NCBI GenBank assembly: GCA_044222185.1
Contig: JBGANV010000003.1
Coordinates: 320,001 to 384,000, forward strand
Source: Planctomycetota bacterium
GTDB taxonomy: Bacteria > Planctomycetota > GCA-002687715 > CAIWVZ01
Length of the DNA stretch: 64,000 bases
Direction: 5' to 3'
This document shows, in pieces, positions 37,120 through 47,349 of this stretch. A program made the translations under genes and the position numbers. The notes below the pieces were generated by a model. The model worked only from the letters and a program-made list of their open reading frames with translations, had not been told where the DNA came from and searched no databases. Within the stretch, counting starts at the first letter, position 1. The number at the start of each line of letters is the position of its first letter.

Positions 37120-39240
37120 TCAGAGGTCGACTTCCTTGACCTCGCCTTCGCCGAGCGTGAACACCGCGGACGACGAAGCACCATCCTTGGCTTGCTTGAG
37201 GATCGACGCGAGGTCGATCGTGCCGTTGCGCTGCGCGACCGTCACGCGATAGGTGCCGATCGAAAGCCCGGTGACCTCGAAATGCCCCTCGGCATCGGTG
37301 TACGCCGTGCGCTGGGAACCGAACCCGGCACCGTTCGTCGCCACCGGAGCCACCTGCACCATGGCCTTCGGATCGGGCTTTCCATCGGTGGAGACGCGGC
37401 CGCGAATCGTGCAGCCGCGCGAGAGCTGCAGGTCGGGCGCCGAGACCTCGCCGCCCTTCGACACGACGACGGGCGAGCTCGTCAGAGGTCCGAACGTCGG
37501 ATGGCGCACGGAGAGCGCGTACCGCCCTTCGAGCAGGTTCGGGATCGTGTAGTTGCCCTTGCTGTCGGTGCGGCCTTCCTTCATCTCGCGGCGCATGTTC
37601 GCCTTGATCAGGCTCAGGAAGGGATTGTCGGGCTGGCCTTCAGGCTGAGCACCTTCTGCAGTGACGATCGCGTCGGCGACGCCCTGGCCCTGATTGTCCA
37701 CGACGCGTCCTCGAATCGTCGCGCCCCGGTGGAGGCGGATCTCCACGTTCTCGCGACGCTCGCTCTGGTTCATCGTGATTTCCTCGCTCTTGCCGCCGGC
37801 GTATCCGGGGGCTTCGGCGAGGAGCCAGTACTTGCCAGGGCGGACGTCGATGTACTCGAACTTCCCGTCCGTGAATCGGGGAGCGCTGAACGATCGCTTC
37901 GTGTGGGGCGCGATGTAGGTGTCGTCGGGCGTCGTCGTGAATCCGATGGTGAATGCGAGCACGGGCCTCCCGGTCTCGTCGTCGACCACCCGGCCCAGCA
38001 CGCGGCCGTTGGACACGAGCTGGAAATTCACGCCGTCCGAGCCGGTCTCGGCAGTCTGCTGCGGAGCCTGCATGTACCCGCTCGCCGCGACGGAGACGAC
38101 GTAACTGCCGCACTCCAGTCCCGGGAACTCGAATCGGCCGTCGTCGCCCGTACGGACCGTCTCGCTGAGCATGGCGGGCGGGGCAACGGGCGCCGTGATC
38201 TTCACGGACGGATTGACAGCTTCCGCCTCCTCGCCGGCGGCGGCGCCGTCGTCGTCACCCTTGCCCTGCTGTGCACGGAGTTTCGCCCGCACTTCACGGG
38301 CCGCGAGCTTCGCCTGCTCGGGGTCGAGCTTGGGTCCGACGGCGAGCGGGCGAGCCGTGACGAGCGCGCCGCCGACGGCCGTGCCGGTCTCCTGCGACGT
38401 GATCAACCCGCCGAGCTTGCAGCCCTCGCCCATGATGATGTCGACGTGTTCGACGTTCTTGTTCGCTTCGACGTTGACCGTCTGGCGGCCGTTCGTCGCA
38501 AAGCCGACCTGGCGCGCCATCAGTTTCTTCACGCCGGGCTTCAGGTTCGAGACGACGTAGTTGCCGGTGGCATCCGACGTGGCGACCTTCTCGACCGCGC
38601 CGAGCGGATCCCAGGTGTTCGTGTTCAGGTCGTACGCCGTGATGGTGACACCGGCGAGTGGCGCACCGCTCGCCGTGTGGATCGTCCCCGAGATCGCTGC
38701 CCCCGTCGTCAGCGTGACCTTCAGGTTGCCGCTCTTGGGATCCTTCAGCTCGACCGGGAAGTAGCGCTCCATGGAGTATTCGGGGTGCGACACGCGGAGC
38801 ACGTAGCGCTCGGCCGTCGAGAGATCCTGGCGCGCGAAGAAGAAGAGGCCGTCACCCTTCGTCGTGCATTGGGCGCGGACGTCGTTCTCCTGGGGCTTGT
38901 TGATCAGTGCCGAGTTGTCGACCACGAGTTCGCAAAGGGCCGAGTCGACGGCGGCGCCGCTGCTGTTCTGGACGATGCCCATCACGCCTGAATCGATGTT
39001 CCCCATGTCCTCCTTGGCGTTGAACGTGGAGACCTTGACCGGGGCAGCGCCATCGGTCTTCGGAGCCGCCTTGTGGTCGACCTGCGGCAGCGTCGGTCGG
39101 TCCTGGAGCGGACCCGCCGTGTCAGCGCGCCCGGGCTTCACGGGGCCCGACCCGCCGTCGCCCGCGACGAGGAAGTACCCGACGCCGATCCCGGCGAGGG
39201 CGAGGAACGCAACGACCGCAATGACTCCGGTTCGGTTCAT
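37120..39240 (-). CDS. Membrane-anchored carboxypeptidase-regulatory-like repeat protein
   Basis: Start MNRTGVIAVVAFLALAGIGVGYFLV; about six Ig-like repeats. Confidence 0.82.
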   Translation of the reverse strand: MNRTGVIAVVAFLALAGIGVGYFLVAGDGGSGPVKPGRADTAGPLQDRPTLPQVDHKAAPKTDGAAPVKVSTFNAKEDMGNIDSGVMGIVQNSSGAAVDSALCELVVDNSALINKPQENDVRAQCTTKGDGLFFFARQDLSTAERYVLRVSHPEYSMERYFPVELKDPKSGNLKVTLTTGAAISGTIHTASGAPLAGVTITAYDLNTNTWDPLGAVEKVATSDATGNYVVSNLKPGVKKLMARQVGFATNGRQTVNVEANKNVEHVDIIMGEGCKLGGLITSQETGTAVGGALVTARPLAVGPKLDPEQAKLAAREVRAKLRAQQGKGDDDGAAAGEEAEAVNPSVKITAPVAPPAMLSETVRTGDDGRFEFPGLECGSYVVSVAASGYMQAPQQTAETGSDGVNFQLVSNGRVLGRVVDDETGRPVLAFTIGFTTTPDDTYIAPHTKRSFSAPRFTDGKFEYIDVRPGKYWLLAEAPGYAGGKSEEITMNQSERRENVEIRLHRGATIRGRVVDNQGQGVADAIVTAEGAQPEGQPDNPFLSLIKANMRREMKEGRTDSKGNYTIPNLLEGRYALSVRHPTFGPLTSSPVVVSKGGEVSAPDLQLSRGCTIRGRVSTDGKPDPKAMVQVAPVATNGAGFGSQRTAYTDAEGHFEVTGLSIGTYRVTVAQRNGTIDLASILKQAKDGASSSAVFTLGEGEVKEVDL

Positions 39241-39430
39241 GTCTGGAGCTCGGATTGGATGCAAACGACCCGCAACGGCGCACGACCGTGCTCGGGGCGA
39301 CCTCTTCGACGTGAGACTGTATCGGCAAATTCCCAGAGGGCCGAGCGGCGCCATGGCCTGGGATGGAAATCTCCGCCGCGGGACGGGTTATCTGTCGAGC
39401 GAGGTGGCTGGCGGCGGCCGCGAACGCGCG

Positions 39431-41509
39431 TCAGAAGTCCGCGTCGACCGTCCCGCCCTCGACCACTTCGATGGACCTGGTGGCCCCGCTGGGCCGGTCG
39501 GGGTGGACGATGGGGCCCAGGTCGATGGTCCCCTCCTTCATGGTGACGCTCAGGCGGTAGGGCCCCGCTGGGAGAGATGCGAAGACGTAACCGCCGTCTG
39601 CGTCAGTGGTCGCGATCCGTTGGGGCTCGGCACGTCGCGCCGGGTCCATGGGGACCAGCTCCAACCGCGCCTTCGCGTCGGGTTCGCCGCTCTTCGTGCG
39701 GACCTTTCCCCGGATCTGACCGGCCGCGCGCATGAGGATGTCGGGGTGGCGAAACTCGGCGCCGGCGGCAATCGTGAACACCGGGGTGATCTCCGTCGCG
39801 AACGACGGGTGCGACGCCGTGAGGCGGAACTCCCCCGTCATCACGCCCGCGAGGCGGAACGTTCCATCGGCCGCCGACTTCGCAGTGAGGATTGCCTTGC
39901 GCGCCTGCCCCTGTGTCAGGCCGATGAACGGGTTGTCGGCCCGGGAGTCGGTCATGCCCACCTGGCTGACGGCCACTTCCGCATCCGCGACGGGTTTCCC
40001 CGACCGATCCACGAGCCGCCCGAGGACTGCAACGCCGCGGACGACGCGAACCTCCACGCGCTCGCGCCGCTCCCCTTCGGCGAGGGTGATCTCCGCGCTT
40101 CGACCTCCGGCCCAGCCCTTCGCCTGGACGAGCACCCAGTACCGCCCTGCGGGAAGGTCGACGAGTTCGAACGAACCTCCGATGGTGCTGGGGGGCGCGA
40201 AGATCCGGCGCGTCTCGGGCGGGATCAACGTGACCTTGGGGTTCGTCACCACGCCGATCTCGAAGTGCGTGAGGGGCCGACCCGTCTCGTCGTCGACGAC
40301 ACGCCCGGCGACGGAGCTGCTCGGCGACAACGCCAGGATCACGTCCGGCACCCCTGCATCGACGTTCCGCTCGACCTGCGGCGATCTGAAGCCCGGCGCC
40401 GACGCCGTCAGCAGGTAGGGCGCGGTCTCGACGCCCTCCACGAGGAAGTGGCCGGTCTCGTCGGTCCTCACCGACAACGGAAGGAACGCGCTCTTCTTGG
40501 GTTTCACGTCGGGCCCGGCTCCAGGCGTCCGATCGCGGGCTGCGGCCTGCGGGTCGCGCACCTTGGGCGCTGGACGCGCCGTCACGAGAGCGTTGGCGAT
40601 CGGCGTCCCCGTGGCCCCCGAGAGGACGACGCCGCCGATCGACGCGCCATCCTGGAAGATGAAGTCGACGAACTGAAGGGACTTGCCCTCCTGGAGCTCG
40701 AGCGCAGCGCGTCCCGTGACCGCGAGGCCGGGATAACGGGCGAGGATGCGCTTCGTCCCGGGCCGCAGACGGTTGAGGACGTAGCGGCCATCCCGATCGG
40801 TCATCGTCTCCGTCTCGAAAACTCCATCCGGCGCCGAGTCCGTGAACTCCGAGTAGTAAGCCGTCACCCGGACGCCGCCCAGGACCTGGCCGGTCTCCCG
40901 TTTCGCGACACCCGTGATCGAGAACCCCGGCTGCATGAGCGCCAGCAGCCGTCCCGCGCGCCGGCCGCGCGGATCGACGAACGGCAGCCGCTCCGGAGCG
41001 TAGTCGGGATGCGTGACGCGGATCACGTAGCGCTGGCCGGCGACGACGGTCGGCGGGCCGAAGTGGAATTCACCGTCGGCCCCCGTGATGAGAGTCTCGA
41101 CGGTCGGGCCTTCCTGCGTCTTCGCCGGGATCGTGCTCGTGTCGAGGATGAGCGCGCAGCGCGCTCCGGCGACGGGGCGTTCGTCGGGACCATGCACGTG
41201 ACCGCGCAACGTGAGCTCGGACTCCGGCTCCGCCACCACGGGCTCCGTCTCGGCGAACGGCTTCGGCACGAGCTCGCCACCGCCGGACGAGCCGCGCGTC
41301 GTCGAGCGCGTCGCCGTGCCAGCCTCGGTCAGGGCCGGAGGTGGAACCGGGTCGCGGCGTTGATGTTCGCCGTCGCCGCTCGTGAGCTTCAGAATCAGCG
41401 CGACGACGCCGACGAGAACGAGGAGAGCTCCGAATGCCGCGGCCTTCCCGCGCGAGGCTCCGGACGTGGCGGACGTCGCACGGCTCGGCTCTGGATCGGT
41501 TGATGTCAT
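39431..41509 (-). CDS. Membrane-anchored carboxypeptidase-regulatory-like repeat protein, paralog of 37120..39240
   Basis: Shared GRVVDDETGRP, GG(K/R)SxEIT, DNPF and GTIDL segments. Confidence 0.82.
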   Translation of the reverse strand: MTSTDPEPSRATSATSGASRGKAAAFGALLVLVGVVALILKLTSGDGEHQRRDPVPPPALTEAGTATRSTTRGSSGGGELVPKPFAETEPVVAEPESELTLRGHVHGPDERPVAGARCALILDTSTIPAKTQEGPTVETLITGADGEFHFGPPTVVAGQRYVIRVTHPDYAPERLPFVDPRGRRAGRLLALMQPGFSITGVAKRETGQVLGGVRVTAYYSEFTDSAPDGVFETETMTDRDGRYVLNRLRPGTKRILARYPGLAVTGRAALELQEGKSLQFVDFIFQDGASIGGVVLSGATGTPIANALVTARPAPKVRDPQAAARDRTPGAGPDVKPKKSAFLPLSVRTDETGHFLVEGVETAPYLLTASAPGFRSPQVERNVDAGVPDVILALSPSSSVAGRVVDDETGRPLTHFEIGVVTNPKVTLIPPETRRIFAPPSTIGGSFELVDLPAGRYWVLVQAKGWAGGRSAEITLAEGERRERVEVRVVRGVAVLGRLVDRSGKPVADAEVAVSQVGMTDSRADNPFIGLTQGQARKAILTAKSAADGTFRLAGVMTGEFRLTASHPSFATEITPVFTIAAGAEFRHPDILMRAAGQIRGKVRTKSGEPDAKARLELVPMDPARRAEPQRIATTDADGGYVFASLPAGPYRLSVTMKEGTIDLGPIVHPDRPSGATRSIEVVEGGTVDADF

Positions 41510-41581
41510 GTGATGGCGGAGGTTGGACGACGGTTGGCGTTCAGGATTCCAAAGGTGCGCGTGAAGGTATTATCGGTCGCG

Positions 41582-43678
41582 ATGAGGGCACTTCGACAGC
41601 TGGCGATCCTCGCCGGGGTCTCCGCGGTCGTCGGAGCGCAGTCTCCGGCAGATCCAGGGTTCCGAGTCTATCTCTGGTTGGAGGGCGCCTTCGACCTCAC
41701 GGCGACGAGCGTGGCGGCGATCCGGGACCTGGGGTTCGGCGGCGTGAACGCGGAGAGCCCGGCGGACGTCGAGCGGGTCGGGCCGACGGGAATGCCGTTC
41801 TACGTCGACCACGCCGTGCCGAAGGGTTTCCTCCACATCAGGCCCGAAACCTTCACCAGTGCGCGCGATGCGTTCCGCAAGTCCCCCGGCGCCGCGACGC
41901 TGGGTCGCCCCACCTGCCTTCGGGACCCCGCGGCACTCGCAGACGCCGAGGCCGCATTGAAGCGCGTCGCACAGGTCTGTCGGACGTTCCGGCCGGACTT
42001 CGTGTCGCTCACGGACGAGCCCTCCGCGACGCGTGGGATCAACCCGATCGACTGGTGCCAGGACGCCCGGTGCGTGACCGCACTTCCGGCCTTCCTCACC
42101 GAGCGCTGGGGGGACGCGCAGCGCGCGCGCGAGGTCTGGGGGACGCATTGGCCCGCGAACGCTCCCCCGGTTCCCGTGGATACGGAGGACGCGCGGCGCG
42201 CAGCGTTCCACGCCATCGGTCCACCTTCGTTGATCGCCGCATGGAACGACACGCGCAGCTTCGCCGACCAGGCCTTCATCGACGCCGTGGCGCACCTCGC
42301 GAGCGGCCTGCGGCGTGAGCTTCCCGGCGTGCCGGTCGGGCTGAACGGCGTGTCCATGCCAAGCGCCTTCGGGGGCTTCGACTGGGAGCAACTCGCGCCC
42401 GTCCTCGACGCCATCGAGCCCTACGACAACGGCGCCGCGCGAGACCTCATCGAAGGATGCGCGCGACCGGGAACGTCATTCGCTCACACGTACTTCCCGG
42501 AGAGTCGAGATGCGACGAGTCTCGCGCATGAGCTGTGGCATTACTTTCTGAAGGGGGATCGGGCCGCGATCTTCTTCAGCACGCGCCACTGGCTCATGGC
42601 GAACGACCCCAAGCGCCCGACGCCGCTACTCGAGGCGGTCGCGCCCCTGCTGAAGGAACTGGCGAGCGATGCGCTGGCACCCTGGCGTCGGTCGCGGCGC
42701 CTTCGGCCGCAGGTCGCGATCCTGCACTCCATGGCGTCGACACGCGCGCATTGGCTCATCGACACGCGACACGACGGAACGAGCTGGTTCAACCGCCTCA
42801 GTTCCTACGAGGACGAGAACTCGTCTGAAGCCGTCAACCGCGCCGCATGGACCGCGTTGCTTGCGGACCTGGGGCTCTCGTATCGGTTCGTATCGACGAT
42901 GGATCTGCGCAGCGGCGCGTTGGCGAAGAGCGACGTCTCCGTGCTCGTGCTCCCGCGAACCATCGCGCTCAGCGACACCGAGGCACGCGCCATCGAACAC
43001 TTCTCGCAGGCACACCTCGTCCTCGCTGATCGGGACATCGGGCTGTTCACGCACCGCCTGGAACGCCGACAGAAGCCCGCCCTCGACGACCTGTTCGGCA
43101 TCACGCGCGCGGGCCCCGTCGACCTCTCGACGCTCGGGGATCTCACCGTTCGTGGTCCCACGCCGGCGACGCCGCACGAACGTGCGATCACGGCCGCGGG
43201 CGCAGAGAGCGGAGCATCCATCGATGGCGTCCCCGTCCTTTTCGCGCGGGGTTCCGCCGGCGGGCGAGCCGTCTATCTGAACCTTCGCATCGGCAGCTAC
43301 TCGAAGGACCGGGTGAGCGACCCGGACCGCGCCGCGCGCCTGCGCAACTGGATCCGCCCGCAGCTCCTGGGGAGTCAGATTCGCGCCAGGGTCGACCTCC
43401 TCGAACGGGCGACGGGGCGACAACCCCTCATCACCACTCACGTCCGGACGGATGGCGACGACCTGCTGGTGGCGTTCGAGGCGCCGCTCCCAGCCACCGA
43501 CTCCCGTCCTGGAAGTGAATCCCGGCCGCATGCCGCGCCCGTACCATTCGTCGCCCTCGTCCCCGGGACCTTCCAGTTCACGGACGCCGTCAGTGGCGCC
43601 GAGCTCGGCTCCGGGAACCGGATCGAATCCACGACCAGCCCCGATCGGCCGAGAATCGTCCGTCTCCGCCGGCGCTGA
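41582..43678 (+). CDS. Exported glycoside hydrolase-like protein (GH42-like TIM barrel + beta-galactosidase trimerization domain)
   Basis: Signal peptide; LTDEPS and DAIEPYD candidate catalytic Glu; FLTERWG; PQVAILHS...VLVLPRTIALSDTE trimerization-domain pattern. Confidence 0.7.
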   Translation: MRALRQLAILAGVSAVVGAQSPADPGFRVYLWLEGAFDLTATSVAAIRDLGFGGVNAESPADVERVGPTGMPFYVDHAVPKGFLHIRPETFTSARDAFRKSPGAATLGRPTCLRDPAALADAEAALKRVAQVCRTFRPDFVSLTDEPSATRGINPIDWCQDARCVTALPAFLTERWGDAQRAREVWGTHWPANAPPVPVDTEDARRAAFHAIGPPSLIAAWNDTRSFADQAFIDAVAHLASGLRRELPGVPVGLNGVSMPSAFGGFDWEQLAPVLDAIEPYDNGAARDLIEGCARPGTSFAHTYFPESRDATSLAHELWHYFLKGDRAAIFFSTRHWLMANDPKRPTPLLEAVAPLLKELASDALAPWRRSRRLRPQVAILHSMASTRAHWLIDTRHDGTSWFNRLSSYEDENSSEAVNRAAWTALLADLGLSYRFVSTMDLRSGALAKSDVSVLVLPRTIALSDTEARAIEHFSQAHLVLADRDIGLFTHRLERRQKPALDDLFGITRAGPVDLSTLGDLTVRGPTPATPHERAITAAGAESGASIDGVPVLFARGSAGGRAVYLNLRIGSYSKDRVSDPDRAARLRNWIRPQLLGSQIRARVDLLERATGRQPLITTHVRTDGDDLLVAFEAPLPATDSRPGSESRPHAAPVPFVALVPGTFQFTDAVSGAELGSGNRIESTTSPDRPRIVRLRRR

Positions 43679-43699
43679 ACCGCCTCAGATCCGGACCAA

Positions 43700-43746
43700 G
43701 CACCACATTTGGGCCAGGTCACAGCCACACCCACCACATCTTGGGC
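43700..43746. promoter_or_regulatory. Tandem NrdR-box-like operators, 31 bp apart
   Basis: gcaCcAcATtTgGgcc (43700-43715) and ccaCcAcATcTtGggc (43731-43746) match all invariant positions of acaCwAtATaTwGtgt; spacing matches known NrdR box pairs. Confidence 0.5.
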
Positions 43747-43806
43747 GTCGCGGACTGCCGCAAACCGCCACCGCCGCGCTTGCAACAGGCCTGTGGAGTT
43801 CTTGCG

Positions 43807-43834
43807 TTGACCACCCCCCCGGTAGTTCTATAAT
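43807..43834 (+). promoter_or_regulatory. Sigma70-type promoter
   Basis: TTGACC-N16-TATAAT, near-perfect consensus in a GC-rich background. Confidence 0.75.
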
Positions 43835-43840
43835 CCCCGC

Positions 43841-44039
43841 GCTGTCGACGGAGAGCGTCTTGTTCACGTTGCCAGCGGCGCCCGAAGAACACCGGGTCCG
43901 CACCCGCCGACTTCCGGCTCGACGCAAGACAAAGCTCGGATTTGGCCACGATTGGAAAAGGTCCCGTAACTCCTGATCCGTCCCCGATCCGACTTCCGAG
44001 ACCCCCGGTGCCTTCAAGTGCCGGGGGTCTCGTCCTTTT
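43841..44039 (+). ncRNA. Candidate structured small RNA (~190-200 nt) of unknown family; alternatively mRNA for a 38-aa basic peptide (43860..43976)
   Basis: Bounded by promoter and terminator; GACGGA (43847-52) pairs with TCCGTC (43977-82); long hairpin GAGC-GTCTTG...CAAGAC-aaa-GCTC; second hairpin 43938-43964. Confidence 0.5.
43997..44039 (+). terminator. Intrinsic terminator
   Basis: CGAGACCCCCGG-tgccttcaagtg-CCGGGGGTCTCG perfect 12-bp stem followed by TCCTTTT. Confidence 0.75.
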
Positions 44040-44206
44040 CAGCGACCACCTCAGCTCGTCGCACACCCGCGCCCGCAACGTTCACGGCGCCGCCGGCAAT
44101 CGATCGGCGGGTGCCACTCCCGCCGGCGAAATAGTTCCCGCGCCCAAATGAGTCCCCTAAGATGCGTGCCGACTCTCGTGCGAAGGCACGGCGCCAGTTC
44201 CCGTTG

Positions 44207-46150
44207 ATGGTCTATCTGCTGCTTCAAAACGAAGTCCTCGAGAACGTTCCGTTCGACCTCACGCGTGAGCTCGTTCTCGTTGGCCGGGGCGCCGACGCCC
44301 ACATCAAGGTCGACCACCCGAGCGTCTCGCGGATCCACGCGCGGATCGAGCGAACGAGCGACGCGCTGCTCGTCGAGGATCTGGGGAGCCGCAACGGGAC
44401 GTTCGTGAACGACCGTGCAGTTGCATGTCCCACGGCGGTCCACCCCGGTGACCGCATCCGCTGCGGTGAGGTCGTGTTCGTCGTTCGCGAGCGCGACGCC
44501 GCGCCGGGGGTATCCGCCGCGGCACCGGCGCTCACGCGACGCACGCTGGTCGGCGCGGCCGTCGTGATCCTCGCTTGTTGCGCCGCAGCCGCGTTCGCAT
44601 TCACGCGAACGCGTCATGAGGAAGACCGCTCTCCCGCGCCAGTCGCCACGGCGCCAGCCGAGCCGGTCACGAACGCGAGACCCTCGAACCACGCAGCGAT
44701 GCAAGAGCTTCCGGTGGTCGTGGAGCCGCAACCCGAACCTCATTCACGCCCGGTGATCGTCGAGGCCCCGCCAGTTCCCAAACCCCAGCCGCCGACGGAA
44801 GTCGTCGAGTCGCCTCCTGCGCCGACGGCAGCGGCGACGCTGACGCCGATGGAAACGGCCGCGCCCAAGCCGGCTCCCGCGACCGAGGCGCCGTTCCCGG
44901 ATCGACTCGCCGAGGCCCGCGCGGCTGGCTTCGAGGCCGTATCGGCCCTGCTCGCCGATTGCGACCGCCGCGCCCTTCACGACGAAGCCGACCGAACGCT
45001 CGCCGTCGCCCTGGAGATGCGCCCCGAGGACGCCACGCTCCGTGCGCGCATCGGAGACCGCCGATACCTCGGTCGCTGGCGATCTCACGCCGACCTCGTG
45101 AAGCTGGGCGTGCTCGATGACGCCGGAAAACTGCGTGGATCCGACACCGACCGAGCCCGCGTGCGCCGCCTCTACATCGACCTGGTCGGACGCACGCCGC
45201 TTCTCACCGAGCTTCCGACCGCCCTCGCCATGAGTCGCGAGGAGATGGTCGACAAACTCCTCGCGTCCGCGGAGCACGCATCACTCTGGTACGAGGACGA
45301 GCTCTTCTACTTCCTCCTGCTCGACGATTTCCGCCCGTCCGAGGACCGGCTGAACGACCTGCCCGGGCGCCTCGCGGCGGCACAGGTCACCGTCAAGGAC
45401 GGGATCGGCGAGATCGTGAAGTCCCAGTTCTTCAACGCCCGCAATCCGGGGAACGACACCTACGTCACCGTGATCCTCGAGCAACTGCTCGGCATCACGG
45501 TGCAGAAGGACCCGCGACTCCTCGAATCCGGGAAGAAGATGTACGACGGCTACGCGACGTCGATCTTCGGGAAGCGCGGCGCGTCGCAGGGTGACTTCGT
45601 CGAGATCTCCATGCAGCAGCCGGCGTTCTCGTCCTTCTACGTGGCGCGCGCCGGCCGGCGCCTCTTGGGCCAGGACCTCCCGAAGAAGGAACTGGACCGC
45701 CTGGCGGCTCAGTTTCATGGCGAGCCGCGCACGTTCCTGGCGATCGAACGCGAGATCGTCCTGTCGGCGGCCTACACGGAAACGTGCAAGACGCCGCGCA
45801 AGAAGACCGATCAGCAGTTCGTGCGCACCCTCTACCACGACCTTCTCGCGCGGGCGCCGACCTACCAGGAGCTGCGCAACATGCGCAACGCGACCCAGGC
45901 GCTCGCCGACCCGGTGGGGATCCGCTCCGTGATCATCAAGGCGATCCTGGAGTCGGAGTCCGTGGCACCGCCGCCGAAGAACGAGATCAAGCCCGCGACC
46001 TGGATCCCCGATCAATTCCTGCACATGCTGGGACGATCGCCGAGTCCCGCGGAACTCGAGACGTTCCTCGACGTCTGGAAGACGCCCGCGTGCCGCCCGT
46101 CGACGATCCTGCATGCCATCCTCACGAGCGCCGAATATCAGCACTACTGA
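44207..46150 (+). CDS. FHA domain-TM-Pro-rich linker-DUF1549/DUF1553-like helical repeat protein
   Basis: FHA VGRG...SVSRIHA...DLGSRNGTFVN; TM TLVGAAVVILACCAAAAFAF; repeats RRLYIDLVGRTP, RTLYHDLLARAP, DQFLHMLGRSP; ORF ATG 44162 overlaps a TAAGAT -10-like hexamer, so 44207 preferred. Confidence 0.75.
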   Translation: MVYLLLQNEVLENVPFDLTRELVLVGRGADAHIKVDHPSVSRIHARIERTSDALLVEDLGSRNGTFVNDRAVACPTAVHPGDRIRCGEVVFVVRERDAAPGVSAAAPALTRRTLVGAAVVILACCAAAAFAFTRTRHEEDRSPAPVATAPAEPVTNARPSNHAAMQELPVVVEPQPEPHSRPVIVEAPPVPKPQPPTEVVESPPAPTAAATLTPMETAAPKPAPATEAPFPDRLAEARAAGFEAVSALLADCDRRALHDEADRTLAVALEMRPEDATLRARIGDRRYLGRWRSHADLVKLGVLDDAGKLRGSDTDRARVRRLYIDLVGRTPLLTELPTALAMSREEMVDKLLASAEHASLWYEDELFYFLLLDDFRPSEDRLNDLPGRLAAAQVTVKDGIGEIVKSQFFNARNPGNDTYVTVILEQLLGITVQKDPRLLESGKKMYDGYATSIFGKRGASQGDFVEISMQQPAFSSFYVARAGRRLLGQDLPKKELDRLAAQFHGEPRTFLAIEREIVLSAAYTETCKTPRKKTDQQFVRTLYHDLLARAPTYQELRNMRNATQALADPVGIRSVIIKAILESESVAPPPKNEIKPATWIPDQFLHMLGRSPSPAELETFLDVWKTPACRPSTILHAILTSAEYQHY

Positions 46151-46164
46151 GATTGGACCCCGTC

Positions 46165-47349
46165 ATGACACGATCGAAACTCAACCGACGCGACTTCCTG
46201 CTGGCGACGGGCGTCGCCATGGGGACCGCCGCCGCGGCGCGGGCCGGAGTGACGCTTCCGTCGCGGGAGCTGCTTCTCCCGACGCGAGCGCCATACAAGA
46301 CGCAGCGGGTGATCCTCGTGGCGTTCGCGGGCGGTGTTCGCAGCCGTGACACGATCGGCGCGCCGCAGAACGTCCCGAACCTCATGAAGATCGCCAAGGC
46401 CGGCGTCGTGTTCCCGAACACGCGTTGCTCGAACCTCGGCCACTTCGGCGCCGCTCTCTCGATCTTCACGGGTGTCCAGGACTACGCGGGCATCCGCGAG
46501 AACGACCGCGGCGACTACCCGACGATGTTCGAGTACCTGCGCAAGCAGCTCGGGCTCTCGGCATCCGACGTGTGGCTCTCGGCGACCGGCGGCGTCCAGC
46601 AGCAGAACTTCACGTACTCCTACCACCGCGGCTACGGCCAGAAGTACGGCGCCAACCTCATCTCGTCGGACGGGATCTTCAACGCAGAGTTCCAGGGCAT
46701 CCTGAACTCGTTCGGCAAGGTCCAGATGCCGACGGAACAGGAGAACGACGCGCTCCAGCGCCTCCGCACGGCGATGACCGCGGAAGCGAAGGACCGCGGA
46801 CTCGCCGGAGCGGACCTGAACTCGCCGGAGGCTCTGCGCTCGATCGAGAAGTTCATCCTGGAGGAGCTCAACCAGGACACGGCGCGGCTGACGGGGCCCG
46901 GATCCGGCGACGCCAAGACCATGCGCGTCGCATCGAACCTCTTCCGCGGCTTCAAGCCCAAGGTCCTCGGCGTCGTGCTCCAGCAGGCGGACGTGGCGCA
47001 CGGGTCCTACAACGGCTACGTGGAAGTCATCCGGCGCAACGACGACGAACTGGGCAAGCTCTGGCAAGGGATCCAGAACGACAGGGCGCTCCGCGACACG
47101 ACGTCGATCTTCATCCTCCCCGAGTTCGGCCGAAACAAGGACCTCAACGAACGCAACGGGCTGGACCACGGCGACGGAAGCCTCGATCTCCAGAACATCG
47201 CGCTCGTCGCGGCAGGCCCGGACATCAAGGCGAACCAGATCGTGAAGAAGGACATCCACGCCACGGACGTCTGCCCGACGATCTGCGAGATTCTCGGCGC
47301 CAAGCCCGAGCTCGCGAAGGGCAAGGTCATCCGCGATGCCCTCGTGTGA
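46165..47349 (+). CDS. Tat-exported DUF1501-like / alkaline-phosphatase-superfamily protein
   Basis: Tat signal SKLNRRDFLL; VILVAFAGGVRSRD, DVAH, ILPEFGR, GLDHG, LVAAGPD. Confidence 0.75.
   Translation: MTRSKLNRRDFLLATGVAMGTAAAARAGVTLPSRELLLPTRAPYKTQRVILVAFAGGVRSRDTIGAPQNVPNLMKIAKAGVVFPNTRCSNLGHFGAALSIFTGVQDYAGIRENDRGDYPTMFEYLRKQLGLSASDVWLSATGGVQQQNFTYSYHRGYGQKYGANLISSDGIFNAEFQGILNSFGKVQMPTEQENDALQRLRTAMTAEAKDRGLAGADLNSPEALRSIEKFILEELNQDTARLTGPGSGDAKTMRVASNLFRGFKPKVLGVVLQQADVAHGSYNGYVEVIRRNDDELGKLWQGIQNDRALRDTTSIFILPEFGRNKDLNERNGLDHGDGSLDLQNIALVAAGPDIKANQIVKKDIHATDVCPTICEILGAKPELAKGKVIRDALV

Follow-up and report, generated by a model that had tools for sequence, protein, structure and literature searches.

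The segment at 43,807-44,039 of the planctomycete DNA analysed here (a stretch of 64,000 nt, referred to as the window, at G000:C7:320001-384000, with G000 denoting the window genome and C7 its contig) is almost certainly a genuine non-coding RNA gene. Its product, a small RNA (sRNA), belongs to a family that lies outside Rfam, is present throughout its class and appears to be expressed. The sRNA is probably a trans-acting antisense regulator that represses the mRNA of a small lysine-rich (Lys-rich), histone-like protein. Within this reading, pairing between the sRNA and the Lys-rich mRNA is predicted with good confidence, and repression as the effect of the pairing is favoured with less assurance. 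The gene, its conservation, its structure, the evidence for a discrete transcript, the complementarity and the co-evolution of the two RNAs were shown computationally.

Promoter, terminator and transcript of the sRNA

The features of the sRNA unit, all on the plus strand of the window, are listed below.

43807..43834 (+): sigma-70-type promoter, with TTGACC (43807-43812), a 16-nt spacer and TATAAT (43829-43834)
43841..44039 (+): sRNA transcript of about 190-199 nt, called from the fold z-score, RNA-library contigs and its single copy in its own genome
43841..43930 (+): variable 5' domain of the sRNA, aligning within genera only
43935..43993 (+): conserved long irregular hairpin, composed of helix P1 and an inner stem bearing the apical loop
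43936-43941 with 43987-43992 (+): P1 helix, UCGGAU with AUCCGA, a conserved structure
43955..43971 (+): pairing site 1, GAAAAGGUCCCGUAACU, complementary to the 5' untranslated region (5'UTR) of the Lys-rich gene
43960-43969 (+): core of site 1, GGUCCCGUAA, nearly invariant and forming the apical loop
43997..44039 (+): intrinsic terminator, with a 15-bp stem (43997-44032), a loop at 44012-44017 and a U-tract
44009-44016 (+): candidate pairing site 2, UGCCUUCA, in the terminator loop region
43860..43976 (+): 38-codon TTG open reading frame (ORF), judged to be no gene, the ORF not being conserved across homologues

The promoter matched 11 of 12 consensus positions and was the sole such site in a 2-kb scan (43000-45000), for which 50 shuffles gave a mean of 0.0 sites; the TTGACC-N16-TATAAT promoter noticed in an earlier inspection of the letters by a model (the sequence-only reading) was thereby borne out. 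The terminator seen in that reading is also present, but its stem counts 15 pairs (43997-44032), 11 of them G-C, instead of the 12 bp proposed, and is followed by TCCTTTT. The fold of 43841-44039 (199 nt) had a free energy of -88.6 kcal/mol (z = -4.51), a stability that none of 200 shuffles equalled; together with the conserved covarying helices described below, this agrees with the foldable multi-stem region that had been predicted. A pairing of the ends of the unit (GACGGA with TCCGTC), claimed in the same reading, was found in neither the minimum-energy fold nor the conserved structure. The sRNA is predicted to start between 43841 and 43849 and to end within the U-tract, and the unit is single-copy in the window genome.

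Four sequencing runs catalogued as RNA, from four studies, each contained exactly one contig on a 701-nt stretch, the RNA label of one of the four being a guess. The contigs were 151-191 nt long, with starts at 43848, 43849 and 43854 and ends at 44004, 44036 and 44039; they had no loose ends, and nothing was found on the flanks of the unit, where missing depth in such contigs is not evidence of silence. The pattern hints at, and fits, an abundant, discrete RNA of ~190 nt. The earlier suggestion of a strongly expressed regulatory RNA of unknown family was therefore supported by conservation with promoter and terminator in 23 of 23 copies, covarying helices and isolated contigs in four RNA libraries.

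Conservation and structure of the sRNA family

With the 246-nt unit as query, BLAST recovered the 3' part in one sister genus only, plus short chance matches, so covariance models were needed. The sister genus keeps the arrangement of strong promoter, ~178 nt, terminator and FHA-domain gene. The first covariance model, which represented the conserved 3' half, matched 22 of the 23 genomes of the order, and the second, built from 22 sequences, gave one strong match per genome in all 23 genomes of the class, the class being this single order with four families (f1-f4). In a phylum sample of 151 genomes, strong matches were obtained only in the 7 class members. Among the 144 genomes outside the class, four gave weak matches (26.9-30.9 bits), which were rejected as homologues since they are plain terminators that lack the motif. 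When 185,579 species genomes were scanned for the exact pattern, 23 stretches were returned, 15 strong by the model and 8 due to chance; the 15 records were labelled as 11 Planctomycetota metagenome-assembled genomes (MAGs), 2 uncultured Planctomycetia, 1 Candidatus Kuenenia stuttgartiensis MAG and 1 uncultured bacterium. A scan of Joint Genome Institute (JGI) metagenomes added two new sequences. When the metagenome pattern was loosened, most matches were due to chance, with 4 true loci among the 80 listed of 89 stretches, and 2 of these 4 scored the same as genomes already in the set.

An independent unit with promoter and terminator, as expected of a trans-encoded sRNA, was present in 23 of 23 homologues. 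The promoter matched 9-11 of 12 consensus positions in every copy (fifteen at 11, seven at 10 and one at 9). The distance from promoter to conserved domain was 71-116 nt in f1, f3 and f4 and 159-265 nt in f2 (the latter range leaving out a record whose sequence contains an N run), so the 5' domain is variable and the 3' domain constant. The sRNA loci of f2 (e.g., L011, L012, L026) carry a 160-265-nt 5' extension with conserved elements of its own, namely GUGGAAAA and, immediately 5' of the conserved domain, a hairpin CGUUACC...GGUAACA; both elements are absent from the window copy.

For the structure, 25 sequences were aligned to the covariance model with 19 consensus pairs, comprising a closing helix UUCGGA/UCCGAA, an inner stem and the terminator. 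Of the cells in these pairs 95.8% were paired, and 10 of the 19 pairs had changed on both sides; none of 500 shuffles attained the observed values, and the covariation signal collapsed when partners were slid by 1-3 columns. P1 and the inner stem were 92-97% paired, with both-side changes at 4 of 9 pairs, and the terminator stem covaried as well. The apical loop GGUCCCGUAA was exact in 20 of the 25 sequences and differed at one position in 4 more. The terminator was conserved in sequence, its loop included, which is unusual.

No Rfam family (Rfam 15) reached its gathering score anywhere in the window, and a permissive scan of 43600-44250 at E<=10 gave only four chance-level matches (E 1.5-5.5), each scoring well short of its family's gathering threshold. 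No tRNA or transfer-messenger RNA (tmRNA) was found, and the signal recognition particle (SRP) RNA of the genome is located elsewhere. These null scans agree with the failure of the sequence-only reading to match the element by eye to tRNA, tmRNA or riboswitches, and the Rfam covariance scan proposed there as a check, having given no match, places the family outside Rfam. The 6S-like size also remarked on is a real similarity of length, but kinship with 6S RNA (RF00013) was rejected: no model match was obtained in the region even at E<=10, and the minimum-energy and consensus folds are several hairpins plus a terminator rather than a rod with a central bubble. The size is coincidental, and a separate 6S candidate is present elsewhere in the genome. 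This candidate (G000:C1:77549-77724, locus L032, outside the window) scored 42.1 bits against a gathering score of 46.4, and the class may carry a divergent 6S RNA.

The Lys-rich gene and its leader

A second copy of the loop motif was found in G000 at C7:591083, on the same contig, 227 kb off and outside the window, in A+T-rich DNA between genes. Across the class, the 14-mer RRAWGGTCCCGTAA occurred 36 times in 22 of 23 genomes versus 5 times for the reversed control, and the extra copies sit antisense to the 5' leader of a small Lys-rich gene. The leader carries UUACGGGACC, which complements the sRNA loop exactly and is presented by a separate hairpin. In order, the leader comprises a 5' hairpin, the complement hairpin, the Shine-Dalgarno sequence GGAGG and a UUG, AUG or GUG start codon, and the hairpins are conserved. 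The pattern TTACGGGACC(N25-60)TGGCNAA recovered this leader in 19 genomes (two further matches were judged to be chance, and the control gave 2), and the diverged leaders of G017 and G009 were recovered by BLAST, so that the target 5'UTR was available for 21 of 23 genomes. In the genomes that have the sRNA gene and the Lys-rich gene on a single contig, the two lie on opposite strands, 19-30 kb apart in 11 genomes and 227 kb apart in G000.

The target protein has 20-154 residues with AKK-type repeats, is rich in lysine and alanine (Lys/Ala-rich) and contains 50-60% lysine plus arginine. It is probably a DNA-binding, histone H1-like protein. Two of the five proteins tested showed sub-threshold similarity (27.7 and 21.4 bits vs a cut-off of 40) to the Pfam family HC2, the chlamydial 'histone H1-like nucleoprotein HC2' family. 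With Rfam, only a sub-threshold ctRNA_p42d match was obtained at the target locus, on the terminator.

In G000 the gene (G000:C7:590960-591140; locus L195 1360-1560, minus strand) is monocistronic; its Lys/Ala-rich product has 28 aa, the leader is structured and ~90 nt long, and the gene has a 12-bp terminator of its own. Protein length varies among genomes because AKK-type repeats have been gained or lost, and in several assemblies the repeats interrupt the sequence at this gene. Away from the Lys-rich gene, the loop motif recurs at L189 (G008, ~1490-1520), L188 (G018), L185 (G002) and G000:C16:402669. The copies in G008 and G018 share 17 nt identical to their own sRNA, and the G002 copy lies in a GC-clamped hairpin loop. 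The strand opposite these copies could contain additional targets.

Complementarity and co-variation at two sites

A conserved seed complementary to a distant mRNA was found at two sites on one mRNA. For site 1, the last 112 nt of each sRNA were compared with the leader of its own genome. The longest complementary stretch was the loop site in 19 of 21 genomes, with a length of 12-18 nt and at most one G-U pair. In G000, 43955-43971 pairs with GGUUACGGGACCUUUUC (G000:C7:~591080) over 17 contiguous pairs including 1 G-U, with an energy of -28.2 kcal/mol, and the hairpins to be opened have energies of -7.8 and -6.8 kcal/mol.

The positions flanking the nearly invariant core changed in both RNAs. 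At flank position -1, 8 genomes have A:U and 6 have U:A; at +10, 7 have C:G, 9 have A:U and 2 have G:C, with a mismatch in 3; and positions +11 and +13 each show two Watson-Crick pair types. The mean number of flank pairs was 5.6 for cognate and 2.7 for cross-genus pairings. With one genome per genus (n = 13), 72 pairs were counted versus 38.5 +/- 8.1 after permutation, and 0 of 20000 permutations reached 72. Double changes in separate lineages are firmer evidence than these permutation tests. Among the 21 genomes, G017 was the only one in which the canonical complementarity was lost, its sRNA loop and UTR loop having both diverged; single mismatches occurred in the leader of G009 and in the sRNA of G006. 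An alternative 10-bp pairing in G017 (2 G-U), which involves a self-complementary GC-rich segment, was left uncounted. RNAduplex predictions on long segments, which gave meaningless whole-length duplexes, were dropped.

For site 2, pairing was counted between the 20 nt before the G-run of the terminator 3' arm and the mRNA from -16 to +12 around the start codon. Uninterrupted runs of 8 or more pairs that overlap the start codon (-7..+4) occurred in 14 of 21 genomes, versus 1.3% of shuffled loops. Compensatory pairs were observed as GGGAAUUGGC with GCCAAUUCCC in four f2 genera, GGGAAUCAU with GUGAUUCCC in genus g5, GGGACUUG with UAAGUCCC in g10 and GCUUUGGC with GCCAAAGC in g2. With one genome per genus, 7 of 5000 permutations attained the observed total. 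These counts of ungapped stretches on a uniformly defined 20-nt segment replaced an energy test on automatically cut terminator loops, in which cognate pairings had -15.0 and non-cognate pairings -13.3 kcal/mol, with wrong hairpins cut in some genomes. In G009, which has a different terminator, a 9-nt match to the Shine-Dalgarno spacer occurs elsewhere in the sRNA and was not relied on. Covariation between two RNAs at two sites is unusually strong evidence for a computational call.

Proposed mechanism and alternative explanations

For the sRNA as a trans-acting repressor, the following course is proposed. Transcription of the sRNA would begin at a strong sigma-70-type promoter of its own and stop at the intrinsic terminator, and the 3' domain of the RNA would present two single-stranded elements, the apical loop UCCCGUAA and the loop of the terminator hairpin. 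The apical loop UCCCGUAA would kiss the 5'UTR hairpin loop UUACGGGA, its exact complement, and the contact would extend to 12-18 bp. The pairing at site 2 would cover the start codon and the spacer that separates it from the Shine-Dalgarno sequence. With the ribosome-binding region occluded, translation would be repressed, possibly with decay of the mRNA, and a highly basic, probably DNA-binding protein would be held down. The terminator loop would double as a seed, and so the sequence of the terminator, not its structure alone, would be conserved. Neither Hfq (PF17209) nor CsrA (PF02599) was found in the window genome (93.8% complete), and therefore the pairing would be chaperone-independent or proceed via another factor; the long loop-loop complementarity fits chaperone-independent pairing.

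Besides this absence of Hfq and CsrA, several points weigh against the reading as a repressor of the Lys-rich mRNA. The evidence is computational; that the RNAs encounter each other in vivo, which way the regulation goes and what the protein does are inferred from it. The genomes are related and not independent, so the permutation figures overstate significance. Site 1 lies ~35-55 nt upstream of the start codon and by itself predicts no direction of regulation. Site 2 is weak in G000, where the 8 pairs formed by UGCCUUCA include 2 G-U and lie on the Shine-Dalgarno sequence, not on the start codon, and it is also weak or absent in G003, G002, G007, G021 and G009. The 5'UTR was not recovered in G014 and G015, where contig ends truncate the locus and only coding-region repeats were detected. 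For the target gene, the promoter scored below the scan threshold and was read from alignment A6 only, and the Lys-rich ORFs, which are of low complexity, are putatively expressed. The RNA contigs give neither strand, ends nor abundance, and DNA may contaminate RNA libraries.

The main alternative to repression keeps the same sRNA and target and reverses the effect: the leader would be remodelled and a sequestered Shine-Dalgarno sequence opened, in the manner of the anti-antisense activation of rpoS by DsrA and RprA. Such activation would suit the position of site 1 well upstream of the ribosome-binding site, the ability of GGAGG to pair with upstream CU-rich segments (by eye; consensus columns 42-47 with 139-144) and the weakness of site 2 in 6 of 21 genomes, G000 included. 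It is nevertheless considered rather unlikely, since in 14 of 21 genomes the second loop complements the start codon together with the spacer 5' of it and covaries with both, which is what a repressor needs. It is improbable that the sRNA is instead a protein-binding RNA, acting as sponge or scaffold, with the UCCCGUAA hairpin as a protein recognition element and the UTR complementarity as a by-product. The invariance of the loop, frequent in protein-binding sites, and the same-sense copies of the motif in G008/G018, in G002 and at G000:C16:402669 would agree with this; yet the main second locus is antisense to a gene leader, so that the motif is not in the mRNA, the arms flanking the loop covary with the UTR, a second, unrelated loop matches the same mRNA, and the window genome has yielded no CsrA or Hfq.

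Two further explanations, both put forward in the sequence-only reading, treat the unit as part of its local context. As a cis-acting leader, it would control read-through into the FHA/PSCyt2 gene (44162-46150), which begins 120 nt downstream on the same strand and is kept in f1 and f3 (13 of 25 loci), and CTCGGA can indeed pair with AUCCGA or UCCGAG in the window sequence. The downstream gene differs between families, however: f2 has a PA/M28 peptidase in this place (5 of 6 loci tested) and f4 an aldehyde dehydrogenase, so that no constant downstream gene was found (three different genes over four families) and a dedicated leader was rejected. The proposed antiterminator pairing of CTCGGA with TCCGAG is likewise possible in the window but not conserved: a second UCCGAG, and with it a mutually exclusive terminator/antiterminator arrangement, occurs in 1 of 25 aligned homologues. 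The terminator is long, G+C-rich and conserved in sequence, the RNA contigs stop at it, and no riboswitch family matches. A cis-switch for the downstream operon is thus very improbable. That the unit is an mRNA for a 38-aa basic peptide is hardly credible. The TTG ORF (43860-43976) exists, fits within the unit, has GGAG upstream of its start and has a 40-aa counterpart in the same frame in G003; but it is the tail of an open frame extending over 43452-43976, and a 1-nt indel within the best-conserved block breaks the frame between G003 and its close relatives G001 and G004. Of 22 homologues with the motif, 9 lack an ORF that runs from a start to the motif in the window frame; in the remaining 13 the ORFs differ in start, length and stop and have in common only the residues encoded by the invariant motif, and 6 of these 13 have no stop before the end of the transcript. 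Conservation tracks base pairs, not codons, and a peptide gene was rejected because the ORF is not conserved.

Neighbouring genes

The most constant neighbour of the sRNA is the upstream gene at 41510-43678 (+), encoding a 722-aa protein without a Pfam match; tblastn matches to it were obtained at 16 of 25 loci in families f1, f2 and f3. Downstream, 44162-47349 (+) encodes a protein with FHA, PSCyt2 (DUF1549) and DUF4214-like parts, followed by a weakly sulfatase-like (DUF1501-type) protein. This gene pair is typical of planctomycetes and is a cytochrome operon in no demonstrated sense, contrary to the name given to it in the sequence-only reading. At 38864-41509, long overlapping frames are present on both strands (879 aa on plus, 692 aa on minus), of which only the minus frame has domains (CarboxypepD_reg repeats); the 879-aa plus frame is probably an artefact of high G+C.

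Comparison with known systems

The sRNA is of a known kind, a predicted base-pairing regulatory sRNA, and its target and two-loop design are what stand out. Among the papers listed by literature searches on sRNAs in Planctomycetes/Planctomycetota there was no planctomycete sRNA study, and among those listed for H1-like proteins in planctomycetes none described such a gene pair. With riboswitch and attenuator leaders the element shares a structured RNA with an intrinsic terminator upstream of a same-strand gene, but it has no constant downstream gene and no conserved alternative pairing, and it has a conserved promoter of its own. With 6S RNA (RF00013) it shares a similar length, a strong promoter and one copy per genome. 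The 6S fold is a rod with a large central bubble, whereas several hairpins are found here and no model match was obtained.

In the pairing of OxyS with fhlA, two separate loops contact one mRNA, one of them over the ribosome-binding site. The likeness to OxyS-fhlA and CopA-CopT is that complementary hairpin loops start the pairing. The RNA described here differs from them in being trans-encoded yet complementary over a whole arm plus loop, as in cis-antisense RNAs, and in making one of its candidate contacts through the loop of its own terminator, which thus doubles as a candidate seed.

The closest analogue is the chlamydial pair IhtA-hctA; the sRNA would work like IhtA and is probably not a member of its family. 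The hosts, Chlamydia and Planctomycetota, belong to the same Planctomycetes-Verrucomicrobia-Chlamydiae (PVC) superphylum. In two reports on IhtA (PMC4355289, PMC3469542), a loop of IhtA covers the start codon of the hctA mRNA, which encodes the histone-like, DNA-binding Hc1, and translation is repressed; the RNA is described with three stem-loops and a single pairing region of ~7 nt around the AUG, and the lethality of HctA in Escherichia coli is relieved by IhtA. The two systems would share a trans-encoded sRNA, a hairpin loop directed at the start codon and a small basic histone-like target, which is predicted here. Loop complementarity of this type over the start codon was found in 14 of 21 genomes and is weak in G000. 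The differences are that no homology was detected (by the Rfam scan, not by direct alignment); that the RNA here is ~180-360 nt long and has two sites, one of 12-18 nt directed at the 5'UTR and the other in the terminator loop and directed at the start region, where IhtA has a single one; that the target is an AKK-repeat protein with sub-threshold HC2 similarity and not Hc1; and that the host is a free-living, uncultured planctomycete.

A class-wide sRNA family is thereby given a specific, falsifiable target prediction in a lineage known from metagenome-assembled genomes alone. Tentatively, and with considerable doubt, sRNA control of H1-like nucleoid proteins might be an old PVC trait, with this sRNA and IhtA either descending from one regulatory logic or converging on it strikingly; a constitutively strong sRNA would clamp, through two loops, the mRNA of a potentially toxic, DNA-condensing Lys-rich protein until a certain growth or developmental state is reached. 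If this were true, it would offer a first means of testing nucleoid compaction in Planctomycetota. IhtA-HctA is the one well-studied PVC case of sRNA control over a histone-like protein, and the putative H1-like target would link the sRNA both to that case and to the much-discussed condensed nucleoid of planctomycetes.

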